Virus record (IMG/VR): IMGVR_UViG_3300009111_000003
Source of the DNA: a virus
Reading direction: 5' to 3' (one strand)
DNA length: 61,596 bases
The notes under the pieces were generated by a model. It saw only the letters and a list, made by a program, of their open reading frames with translations. It was not told where the DNA came from and did no database searches. A program made the position numbers and the translations under genes. Positions 13,018-26,792 of the stretch are shown here, in pieces; the first letter of the stretch is position 1; each line of letters begins with the position of its first letter.

Positions 13018-13279
13018 AAATCGGAGCCATTCTATATATTTCGTAATGACGGAGACATTGGGAGCGAAACAGATCGTAGTGGATATCGCTGGACGGGGTT
13101 GGGTAACATCCCCCACCTATCCCATACACCGATGGTCGACTTTTCCCGTACACTCACACGCCGAACCCTACCTGCGGAAACGCGCCGCCCAACCATTACC
13201 TACCACGCGCGATAGGAACTTCAATACTCCCATGTACAGAATATATATCTTCTCCCATGCAAAGTAGTTACGAAAAGTG

Positions 13280-13327
13280 TTGACATACATTATTCGTAGG
13301 CGCACACTGGTAGTGTGGCAGGCAACC
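13280..13327 (+). promoter_or_regulatory. Early promoter cassette with GGCAGGCAACC leader box
   Basis: TTGACA at 13280 and the box at 13317-13327, followed by SD gaagggagg and ATG 13347. Confidence 0.65.
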
Positions 13328-13346
13328 AGTAGAAGGGAGGTGCATC

Positions 13347-13781
13347 ATGGGAACCACCACCAAGCAGTGGAACAACTTGTGCGACGGGAAGTGTCACCTG
13401 TGCGAAGATGAAACCATCGAGCGGTGCGCGAACATGCGTTCCTATCGTTGGGGTAGCCGCGTTCTGCTGGCTATGCACATCATACAGAATGGCACCCCGT
13501 TTTCGCAGGTTGAGGAGGGCGGCGATCCCGAGTGCGGTCCGCATGTGTTCGGGCTTCACGGCTTCCGCATGGGCTCGGTCATGGTGATTTTCCCCGTTGA
13601 CAGTTGGGGATTGCGCTATGAGGATCGCGCGTACATGCTTTCCCGCAAGGCACTGAGGGGATGGAAGGACAACGGAGATCCAGTCAACTACTATCCGGTC
13701 AACAGCGGTGAGTGGGAGTACGATTTCCCGCACAAGACCGCATCGTTTCTGAGCGCGTACCAGCGTCATCTGAACAGGTAA
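13347..13781 (+). CDS. Hypothetical early protein (144 aa, N-terminal Cys cluster)
   Basis: ORF track; strong SD. Confidence 0.7.
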   Translation: MGTTTKQWNNLCDGKCHLCEDETIERCANMRSYRWGSRVLLAMHIIQNGTPFSQVEEGGDPECGPHVFGLHGFRMGSVMVIFPVDSWGLRYEDRAYMLSRKALRGWKDNGDPVNYYPVNSGEWEYDFPHKTASFLSAYQRHLNR

Positions 13782-13793
13782 GGGGCGAGGAAC

Positions 13794-14096
13794 ATGGGCA
13801 TGTACATGAAGAACAGGGCGGGGCAGTGGGTTCGGAACCCGTACCAGTCTCCGAACCCGTGGGTGCGTCAGATGGTGATGCGTGAGCCGGAGATCTACTG
13901 GCAAATCAAGAACGGCGCACGCTTCACGGATGTGGACTCGGGTGAGAACTGCAAGCCGATCCCGTGCCCGAAGTGTCACCGCCAGATGTGGATGCGTCCT
14001 ACGGTCGGGAAGTACGCATGCCCCGACTGCGGGTGGATCGCAATGTCCCAGTACACCCCCGAGGATGGCTTTGACGGACATTCCTGTGACGCGTAA
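13794..14096 (+). CDS. Hypothetical zinc-ribbon protein (100 aa)
   Basis: CPKC...CPDC motif; ORF track. Confidence 0.65.
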   Translation: MGMYMKNRAGQWVRNPYQSPNPWVRQMVMREPEIYWQIKNGARFTDVDSGENCKPIPCPKCHRQMWMRPTVGKYACPDCGWIAMSQYTPEDGFDGHSCDA

Positions 14097-25410: not shown

Positions 25411-25452
25411 CAAAGAGTTTCTGTTGTGCTATGCTGACCGTGGCTGGCAACC
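25407..25452 (+). promoter_or_regulatory. Promoter cassette with box variant GGCTGGCAACC
   Basis: TTGACA 25407, TATGCT 25430, box 25442-25452. Confidence 0.7.
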
Positions 25453-25596
25453 CATTAGAGTTCCGGGTAAAGCGGGGTTACGCTCCCTGCCTCCGAGGTT
25501 GCCTGCCGCACGAGGTTGAGCGACCCGCTTTAGGGAAAGTGGGTCGGAGTGGAGCCACCCTTCCTCCGACCCCCTTCCCGACCATTTGGAGGGGAC
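25453..25596 (+). promoter_or_regulatory. Structured 5' leader containing the exact complement of the consensus leader box
   Basis: ggttgcctgcc at 25497-25507 is the reverse complement of ggcaggcaacc. There is a helix taaagcggg (25468) / cccgcttta (25524) and a hairpin gggtcggag/ctccgaccc (25541-25572). Confidence 0.5.
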
Positions 25597-26538
25597 ATGG
25601 CAGGCAAGCCCGAAATCCATACTACCGAACTCAAGACGTTCAAGCGTTGTCGTCGCAAGTGGGCTATCGGAGAACTCGCAGCCCTACAGCCACAAAAGCG
25701 GAACATGAATTTCCTCTTGGGCACTGCTGTTCACTCCGCACTAGAAGAGTGGAGTGCAACTGGCGACGAGGAAGCCATGCTAGATGCCTTTCTCGTCGCT
25801 GTGGACAACGACACAAGAGATCTCAGAGAGCAGACTCCGTGGTTATACGCGGAACAGGAAGCGGATATCATCGAGGCTGTGGAACTGGGACGTGAGATGG
25901 TGACGGGATACATCAAGCACTGGTATCCCGAGACGTTCACAGTGCTACGAGCAGGCGGCAAGCCACTTCTCGAGGTGGCTTTTTCTATGCCGATCCTCAC
26001 GCCTGACGGCAAGCCCACGGGATACACCTACGCTGGAAAGATGGACGGCGTGGTGAAGGACGAGTACGGCATCTGGATACTCGAGCGCAAGACCACCAGC
26101 AACACGAACGCTGAGTACCTACGACTCGACGACCAGAACGTGATGTACCTCGCCTATGCCCAGAAGATGTGGCCGAAGATTGTACCGCATCTCCGTGGTG
26201 TCTACTACGACTTCCTTCGCAAGCAGCGTCCTGGTCCGAGAGTCAAGTCACCACTGTTCTTCCGAGAGCGTGTGTACCGCAACCAGCACGAGATCGACTA
26301 CGCCATGGAGCACGTCTACTACGTCGTGCAGGATATGATTCGAGTGGCAAAGGATCCAGACAACCTTGCGTATCCCAGTCCTACGAAGGACTGTTCATGG
26401 GACTGTCCGTACAAGCAACTCTGCAAGGCAATGAATGACGGAACTGATGTTGACACGATTGTTGAGGCAGGGTTTGTCATCCTGTCAGAAGGTCGCAACG
26501 GTTGGGTCAGTGATTGGTTCCCGAAGGGGCGCGTCTGA
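25597..26538 (+). CDS. PD-(D/E)XK nuclease, Cas4/RecB-like, with an Fe-S cysteine cluster
   Basis: ATG 25597 follows SD ggagggg. It carries an ILERKTT (ExK) motif, an N-terminal Cys (KRCRRKW) and C-terminal CSWDCPYKQLC. Confidence 0.8.
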   Translation: MAGKPEIHTTELKTFKRCRRKWAIGELAALQPQKRNMNFLLGTAVHSALEEWSATGDEEAMLDAFLVAVDNDTRDLREQTPWLYAEQEADIIEAVELGREMVTGYIKHWYPETFTVLRAGGKPLLEVAFSMPILTPDGKPTGYTYAGKMDGVVKDEYGIWILERKTTSNTNAEYLRLDDQNVMYLAYAQKMWPKIVPHLRGVYYDFLRKQRPGPRVKSPLFFRERVYRNQHEIDYAMEHVYYVVQDMIRVAKDPDNLAYPSPTKDCSWDCPYKQLCKAMNDGTDVDTIVEAGFVILSEGRNGWVSDWFPKGRV

Positions 26539-26747
26539 TGCCCGTAGGTCTTCGCACAGCGAGGGCGAAGAAGCACATTGACGCACTGCGCCAGTCGGTA
26601 GCAGACGCATACGCCAATGGAAAGATAGCGGAGTGCAGAATGAAGATTCTGCTAGGGTTACTCAACTCGTTTGAGAGGGAGGCATTCCTTCCATGGAGGC
26701 GGGTTGAGGAAGAGATGAACGCTGAGCGTGAGTACGAAAAAAGTTGA
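26538..26747 (+). CDS. Hypothetical protein (69 aa)
   Basis: ATG 26538 overlaps the nuclease stop (TGATG). Confidence 0.5.
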   Translation: MPVGLRTARAKKHIDALRQSVADAYANGKIAECRMKILLGLLNSFEREAFLPWRRVEEEMNAEREYEKS

Positions 26748-26792
26748 CACGGAACGGCGGCAGTGCTACGCTTTGATTGTGGCAGGCAAACC
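26744..26792 (+). promoter_or_regulatory. Promoter cassette with GGCAGGCAAACC box
   Basis: TTGACA 26744, TACGCT 26767, box 26781-26792. Confidence 0.7.

Follow-up and report, generated by a model that had tools for sequence, protein, structure and literature searches.

Background

Short repeated words such as stoperators, SAS and boxA switch blocks of phage genes, and most of those found by genomics have no known mechanism. Here we describe such a word in the metagenomic sequence of an uncultured phage, 61,596 bases long (IMG/VR record IMGVR_UViG_3300009111_000003; the whole stretch is called the window below), in which roughly a dozen early messages have the same element of 8-11 nucleotides (nt), termed the box, at their predicted 5' ends; the element has been kept through deep divergence. 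The cassette to which it belongs consists of strong host-type early promoters and, at or close to the predicted transcript start, the box itself, which is conserved and specific to this clade. The box is absent from the late promoter. Complementary partners built into some leaders suggest that it is read as RNA. Our preferred reading, to which we give a probability of roughly 0.4, is that the box is an RNA leader element that would coordinate the translation or stability of the early messages, with complementary anti-boxes in cis tuning particular transcripts.

The nearest known kinds of element are the SAS repeats of Cluster K mycobacteriophages and the stoperators of Cluster A, and the box departs from both in defining features. 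SAS and ESAS are short asymmetric repeats present in 11-19 copies, in one orientation and in the non-structural arm only (PMC3203893). In the parts of that paper that deal with the repeat, it lies ahead of genes that follow large intergenic gaps and is conserved across subclusters before unrelated genes, its function is given as unknown, and a role in translation initiation is suspected (PMC3203893). The box is likewise limited to the non-structural arm, in one orientation, before genes with large upstream gaps. However, its sequence is unlike SAS: the SAS word GGGATAGGAGCCC contains the Shine-Dalgarno sequence (SD) itself and lies a few nt from the start codon, whereas the box lies 0-5 nt upstream of a separate SD and in long leaders stays by the promoter; no promoter link or anti-box was found in those parts of the SAS description (PMC3203893).

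Cluster A stoperators, as bound by L5 gp71, are asymmetric sites of approximately 13 bp that occur in many copies with an orientation tied to transcription, and a single protein, a helix-turn-helix (HTH) immunity repressor, controls many units through sites spread across both arms of a temperate phage (PMC9283540, PMC6550527). All promoter-linked boxes are similarly asymmetric and oriented with transcription, but their sequence is unrelated, and they are promoter-proximal and occur in one arm only, without the intergenic spread through both arms. No HTH repressor or integrase was detected among 52 proteins scanned with Pfam and PHROGs (46 from the rightward arm and a subset of 6 from the leftward arm).

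Three further systems share single features with the box. In lambdoid nut sites and rRNA leaders, boxA is a short promoter-proximal leader element that acts as RNA, in the sense orientation only and at variable distance. The box is also a short linear element of a predicted leader, in sense orientation and at variable promoter distance, but the boxA consensus (GCTCTTTA-like) is unrelated, no such word occurs in the leaders, the short leaders have no hairpin, and neither a boxB hairpin nor an N-like protein was found. Antitermination, one of the functions offered in the initial annotation of the window, was set aside because each unit has its own promoter, so that read-through is not needed. 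In the T4 RegB/RegA systems, a short sequence common to the ribosome binding sites of early mRNAs allows one phage factor to switch messages off post-transcriptionally, and RegB cleaves inside GGAG, a sequence of the SD itself. The box is also a short word common to many early messages near the ribosome binding site, but it is separate from the SD, and no RegB- or RegA-like protein was detected in the scanned set. Lastly, pairing of the 5' and 3' untranslated regions (UTRs) is known in bacterial mRNAs such as icaR of Staphylococcus aureus; in the window and its closest relative, two units named A and B pair nucleotides beside the SD with the 3' UTR ahead of the terminator, but this is limited to two paralogous first genes, and possibly the one-gene 15618 unit, and is not a property of the box family overall.

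The early promoters

The rightward gene arm of the window runs from approximately 11 to 40 kb, and all other genes, including the capsid genes, are leftward. Twelve copies of a strong sigma-70/SigA-type promoter were found on the rightward arm (Table 1), each upstream of and co-oriented with genes, with a TTGACA-like -35, a spacer of 16-18 nt (typically 17 nt) a TRTG-type extended -10 and a -10 hexamer TAnnnT. The exact pattern TTGACA-N17-TAnnnT accounts for nine plus-strand sites between 15.2 and 26.8 kb, and the additional modules are those at 34311, 13280 and 12195 (modules are named here by the position of the -35). A search for TTGACA-N14-TGCTAYGCT with up to 3 mismatches returned 13 matches against 2.5 expected, 10 of which are plus-strand sites already listed in the initial annotation. 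All nine strong sites and both weak ones (12195 and 15202) of that list are present, and its count of about 11 has to be raised by a twelfth module at 34311, beyond the range first reported, which lies inside coding gene 34025-34387 and ahead of an SDR gene at 34380. The 17-nt spacing that had been given to TGCTA(C/T)GCT applies instead between TTGACA and TAnnnT, and TGTTGT, described as a constant part of the module, follows the -10 in only three copies.

Reading of the sequence places TGTG-n ahead of the -10, and TG is present at -15/-14 in most copies; TRTG-type extended -10 elements are typical of Gram-positive promoters. The spacer has a conserved TC at about -21, an A-rich upstream element is present in some copies only, and several window copies have the spacer or flank bases TTCYGTGTGC, TGTTGT and TAGTCGCGAAAAGT in common. 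Five copies of the upstream word TAGTYRCGAAAR were counted where 1.15 were expected, all of them directly 5' of a -35, and in three the preceding gene ends at the TAG of this word, in agreement with the upstream element first described. The leftward late promoter has the same kind of -35 and -10 and was correctly described as lacking the box, which is also missing from it in the closest relative. Because the early promoters are near-consensus, the cassette would be usable in ordinary reporter systems. A further promoter-like site, TTGACA-17-TAGTTC (14613-14641), lies ahead of gene 14681 and is box-less.

Sequence, enrichment and position of the box

In 10 of the 12 window promoters, GGCAGGC(A)(ACC) starts 6-16 nt past the -10 hexamer, and not 10-20 nt past TGTTGT as had been proposed; the 25407 copy reads GGCTGGCAACC. 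The core GGCAGGCA occurs 18 times in the window against 1.85 expected, with 15 of the 18 on the plus strand between 11 and 38 kb. The exact 11-mer GGCAGGCAACC is found four times on the plus strand (13317, 15658, 19410 and 22648) and once inverted (25497), where approximately 0.03 occurrences were estimated by chance. In a box-anchored profile GGCAGGCA is near-invariant and AACC is looser, and the boxes at 12195 (GGCTGGGAGCCAACC) and 15202 (GGCAAGGGCAAAGGGCAG) are degenerate; near-invariance is limited to the core, GGCAGGC(A). The box is made up of two or three tandem GGCA units, sometimes spaced, and the unit is spaced or repeated in the degenerate 15202 copy and ahead of gene 11254. Such tandem units look less like a duplex operator than like the sites of RNA-binding proteins that recognize repeats.

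Across 28 modules of the window and its relatives, the gap between the -10 and the box ranges from 6 to 18 nt, with a minimum of 6 nt and a value of 6-9 nt in 17 modules, and all promoter-linked boxes are in the sense orientation. Transcripts usually start 6-8 nt after the -10. By this rule the predicted first base of the box falls between +1 and +3 in most units and in none upstream of +1, so that most early mRNAs would start with the box, and the gap of at least 6 nt together with the constant orientation fits a transcribed element. In short leaders the -10 and the start codon are 34-44 nt apart; the box ends 0-5 nt before a long SD and is predicted to be mostly unpaired. Promoter-linked boxes are confined to the plus arm (11-34 kb), and the leftward-arm copies, at 6243 and 43006, are both within coding regions. 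Inverted copies lie in cis at 25497, 15888 and 11897, and a search of the window for inverted GGCAGGC found none beyond these sites and the leftward arm.

A position at +1 to +3 is also what would be expected if the box were simply the initial transcribed sequence of tight consensus promoters, its purine-rich G start being selected for efficient initiation or escape, possibly on chemically marked virion DNA, with no extra factor involved. With their consensus -35, TRTG-type extended -10 and upstream A-tract, the promoters are of a kind known to be escape-limited from T5 N25 and its initial-transcribed-sequence variants. We nevertheless regard this explanation as rather unlikely, as an escape element would not need a fixed 8-11-nt word at a variable distance of 6-18 nt, the late promoter, which belongs to this class too, does without a box, a distant relative with equally strong repeated promoters is box-less, and five phages have a copy at a start codon, approximately 190 nt from the promoter.

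Conservation in related phages

A megablast search of GenBank phages gave no DNA match to the window, and the window DnaE is approximately 36% identical to proteins of Streptomyces, Microbacterium, Arthrobacter and Mycobacterium phages. Relatives were found by a search with the SNF2 protein, and contigs were retrieved for four metagenomic lineages: L003/L008 (74% SNF2 protein identity), L004/L005 (58%), L006/L007 (56%) and L011 (54%). Early proteins common to the window and L003 are 41-84% identical. A single-protein scan of IMG/VR gave no match, two IMG/VR pattern scans with the promoter or the module returned only four unrelated contigs (L001, L002, L009 and L010), and a search for homologues of the unit-B protein returned only the relative's two paralogues.

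The box follows promoters in all of these lineages, and the promoters have diverged. In a non-redundant set of 31 promoter-like sites, GGCAGG was found 0-20 nt past the -10 in 23, against a background of 0.0115 (binomial P approximately 1e-38, for sites that are not phylogenetically independent). The core 7-mer is kept in 8 of 8 orthologous promoter pairs between the window and L003, and in these same pairs the -35 is 94% identical, the -10 88% and the spacer 58%, with identity falling to 38% over the six bases that directly follow the -10 and to 31% over the 20 nt past the box. The distant SNF2 relatives L012 and L013 (approximately 40% identity) have no box, and one of them has equally strong repeated promoters. 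Since the core is kept amid drifting flanks and is absent from these distant relatives, the box is clade-specific and under selection, and the comparison supports purifying selection across five diverged phages. The results support the earlier suggestion that the box exceeds what sigma-70 recognition needs.

The spacer and flank bases common to several window copies are what recent copies would show, and the box might then have no function of its own and hitch-hike with a promoter cassette spread by duplication or recombination in the early arm. This is very improbable: at 54-74% protein identity the flanks are down to 31-58% while the core is present at every orthologous site, and promoter-less copies and complementary partners are conserved as well.

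In L012, which has a GC content of 39%, repeated TTGACA-TGnTATAAT promoters were observed at 79-340, 2471, 6262 and 10890, and two of them have GGAAATAGA in common after the -10. A different downstream word may have a similar role in this relative.

Leader structures and complementary partners

Leaders of the 25407 type are present in five phages and consist of a variant box at the 5' end (box1), an anti-box and, where the next gene starts, a further GGCAGGCA (box2). The anti-box is the 15-nt word GAGGTTGCCTGCCGC, which is complementary to the consensus box and does not vary among the five. The promoter-less GGCAGGCA lies over or beside the start codon in 5 of 5 phages, approximately 190 nt from any promoter, and the gene concerned encodes a nuclease or a methyltransferase-like protein. 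Predicted pairing energies of the anti-box are about equal for its two possible partners (-22 to -26 kcal/mol with box1 and -20 to -24.5 kcal/mol with box2).

In the 19369 leader the box is followed by an insert of approximately 280 nt (window 19421-19733) that is closed by a predicted helix of approximately 30 bp, and the counterpart in L003 (5975-6345) is approximately 330 nt long with the same closing helix. The helix starts 2-6 nt past the box and ends just 5' of the SD of gene 19734, so that the box and the SD would adjoin again once it is folded. Between the window and L003 there are four compensatory changes in the closing helix, and 16 of 68 predicted pairs overall show such changes. 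In the 20825 family, the box forms the 5' arm of a predicted 5' hairpin in three phages, with an unpaired probability of 0.05-0.12.

In units A and B, which have paralogous first genes, a stretch of 11-13 nt next to the SD is complementary to the 3' UTR of the same unit, ahead of the terminator (P = 0.0007-0.009 each against random segments). All four sequences, from the window and L008, differ from one another, a pattern of compensatory change; in unit A of the window the paired stretch includes a box. The one-gene 15618 unit has a 10-nt pair between 15656-15665 and 15888-15897 (3' UTR), which is absent in the relative. No Rfam 15 covariance model matched positions 10000-42000 at E<=1.

A role as RNA is suggested by the adjacency of the box to the SD, the promoter-less copy at a start codon, the conserved complement in the anti-box and the gap of at least 6 nt. 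Under the preferred reading, host RNA polymerase would fire the early promoters and place GGCAGGCA(ACC) near each predicted 5' end, where it would act as a single-stranded 5'-leader element beside the ribosome binding site. The box would be read in trans, by a protein of the phage or the host or by a complementary RNA, and this factor would thereby set the translation and/or the stability of the early messages together; particular transcripts would tune or escape this control by pairing their box with a cis anti-box.

The invariant anti-box allows a more specific variant, in which the box is the address tag of an RNA regulon. Here anti-box RNA of the 25407 operon would pair in trans with the other early boxes beside their SDs, silencing or destabilizing those messages; alternatively, the pairing partner may be a short RNA whose 3' end lies at the strong hairpin downstream of the anti-box. 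Accumulating operon RNA would then silence the early messages, with the operon's own box1 and box2 forming a bistable switch over the start codon. We consider this variant quite improbable.

DNA-level constraint and search for a reader protein

Several results weigh against an RNA leader element. That the box is transcribed is predicted from the spacing rule for the -10. The box and anti-box of the nuclease leader do not vary among phages, and because they are invariant their pairing is without covariation support. The boxes of the short leaders have neither a predicted structure nor a partner. Two further results, a constraint on the DNA itself and the outcome of the protein searches, bear on the same point and are set out below.

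In 28 modules (all 12 in the window, plus those of L003, L004, L007, L008 and L011), the trinucleotides VGA and TCB do not occur at all between the -10 and the box: the count is 0 of 334 trinucleotides, compared with a density of 0.085-0.096 per nt in the flanks. All eight GA dinucleotides in this stretch are part of TGA. The free zone reaches the end of the box core whatever its length. The spacer, by contrast, has both words at fixed places: of 31 modules, 25 have a TCB starting 9-10 nt 5' of the -10, and 17 have a VGA starting 16-17 nt 5' of it. The density of VGA/TCB is 0.001 in 11027-11982 and 0.115 elsewhere; the absence ties the promoters to this VGA/TCB-free island, and links promoter architecture to whatever makes the trinucleotide special in the genome. 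As the word and its complement are both avoided, the avoidance is a property of the duplex. The constraint is thus strand-symmetric and shows that the DNA of the zone from the -10 to the box matters too, which keeps two DNA-level explanations alive. One is the initial-transcribed-sequence explanation above, since transcription initiation acts directly on the DNA from the -10 to the end of the core, which is VGA/TCB-free on both strands.

The other is a DNA operator or roadblock, in which a phage DNA-binding protein on duplex GGCAGGCA would block initiation, escape or elongation at the early promoters and also sit at the start of the nuclease gene, sparing the box-less late promoter as in the case of L5 stoperators. 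Besides the strand-symmetric constraint, this would account for the placement of the box within about +1 to +20, a region in which a bound protein obstructs RNA polymerase, for an orientation as strict as that of stoperators (PMC9283540), and for the missing box at the late promoter of two phages; box2 at a gene start could be a promoter-independent roadblock site. On balance we find an operator unlikely. The box overlaps neither the -10 nor the spacer in any module, tandem 4-bp repeats in variable number would be odd for a duplex operator, and the sites occupy one arm only, unlike stoperators. No HTH protein, repressor or integrase was found among the 52 scanned proteins, and the invariant inverted leader copy and the 5' hairpin and 3' UTR partners are better explained by RNA pairing.

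The protein scans also bear on an RNA leader element, since no HTH, sigma, integrase, repressor or RNA-binding domain was detected by Pfam or PHROGs in the set. The initial annotation had proposed an operator or an RNA site for a phage regulator; the evidence leans to the RNA site, and no domain of such a regulator was seen in these proteins. The early proteins gave only zinc ribbons below threshold in PHROGs and Pfam. The best-conserved early proteins, those starting at 15682, 19060 and 20938, are each encoded in their own promoter-box-terminator unit and have no sequence match in the PDB. Low-confidence AlphaFold models of 20938 and 15682 had predicted local distance difference test (pLDDT) scores of 54.5 and 64.7, and neither gave a Foldseek match with E<0.3.

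The protein encoded at 20938-21444 is the best conserved of the early proteins (84% identity to L003 and 57% to L007). Its small alpha/beta core is flanked by disordered tails rich in Lys and Ala. It is encoded in its own promoter-hairpin-terminator unit, and has no family or fold match; it could bind nucleic acid. Cys-rich zinc-ribbon early proteins, all below Pfam thresholds, are encoded at 22059-22238, 13794-14096 and 17470-17934, and the sub-threshold types seen among the small early proteins are DnaJ CXXCXGXG-like, A2L/TFIIB-like and Lar-like.

Features of the window and additional observations

Table 1. Promoters, boxes and pairing partners in the window and, where named, in related contigs (d, gap in nt from the -10 to the box)
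Feature	Position	Strand	Promoter and upstream elements	Box and other elements
Late (leftward) promoter, contrast case	10534..10563	-	TTGACA-18-TATGCT	no box
Leader of gene 11254-11886	11199..11252	+		three box copies, at 11205, 11209 and 11242
Weak module 12195	12180..12275	+	upstream TAGTTGCGAAAA; TTGACA 12195; poor -10 GAGACT	degenerate box GGCTGGGAGCCAACC
Module 13280	13265..13327	+	upstream TAGTTACGAAAA; TTGACA 13280; -10 CACACT	GGCAGGCAACC 13317-13327 (d=8); then SD and ATG at 13347
Degenerate-box module 15202	15186..15258	+	TTGACA 15202; TATGAT	GGCAAGGGCAAAGGGCAG at 15241-15258
Module 15618	15618..15668	+	TTGACA-17-TACGCT	15658-15668 (d=11)
Module 16736	16721..16781	+	upstream TAGTCACGAAAA; TTGACA 16736; TGCTACGCT	GGCAGGCACC 16772-16781 (d=7)
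Module 18992	18977..19043	+	upstream TAGTCGCGAAAA; TTGACA 18992; TGCTACGCT	core GGCAGGC 19037-19043 (d=16); SD directly 3' of core
Module 19369	19369..19420	+	TTGACA-17-TATGCT	19410-19420, then long leader insert
Module 20825	20825..20911	+	TTGACA-17-TATGCT	GGCAGGCAGAC 20869-20879 (d=15); hairpin partner CTGCCTAGCC ~20900-20911
Module 22611	22611..22658	+	TTGACA-17-TACAGT	22648-22658 (d=8)
Long-leader module 25407	25407..25609	+		box1 variant GGCTGGCAACC 25442-25452 (d=6); anti-box GGTTGCCTGCC 25497-25507
box2 of 25407 leader	25599-25609	+		GGCAGGCAAGC; overlaps ATG (25597) of PD-(D/E)XK nuclease gene
Module 26744, first in replication operon	26744..26792	+	TTGACA-17-TACGCT	GGCAGGCAAACC 26781-26792 (d=8)
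12th module, 34311	34311..34364	+	TTGACC-18-TACTTT	GGCAGGCAACG 34354-34364 (d=13)
Second -10-like hexamers of long-gap modules	window 20854-20868; L003 7525-7540; L007 1558-1575		TTCACT, TACAGT, TAGGTT	
Unit A 5'/3' UTR pair, window	11199-11211 / 11897-11909			13 nt
Unit B 5'/3' UTR pair, window	12258-12269 / 12863-12874			12 nt
Unit A 5'/3' UTR pair, L008	7627-7637 / 8323-8333			11 nt
Unit B 5'/3' UTR pair, L008	8730-8741 / 9323-9334			12 nt

The last 123 bases of the window duplicate its start, so the phage genome is circularly assembled. Along the rightward arm, small early genes without an assigned function are followed by genes for an SNF2 helicase, a PD-(D/E)XK nuclease, AAA_24, a primase-MCM protein, DnaE and ThyX. 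Orthologous modules with a long gap (15-18 nt) have a second -10-like hexamer 5-6 nt before the box (Table 1), which could be an alternative start or a pause signal.

A scan of genome contigs for the module returned 73 matches, of which approximately 44 were estimated to arise by chance, and the excess came from a few homologous families; the scan gave no host clue and no prophage relative. The chief family in the excess, from Lachnospiraceae and Treponema, has a promoter and a 5' hairpin preceding drum RNA (RF02958), at loci L014, L015, L019, L021 and L022 and approximately 20 further genome loci. At these loci a hairpin starting with GGCAGGCAAC follows a consensus promoter and lies directly 5' of the start of the RF02958 model; the curated model probably leaves out a 5' stem of the drum RNA transcript.

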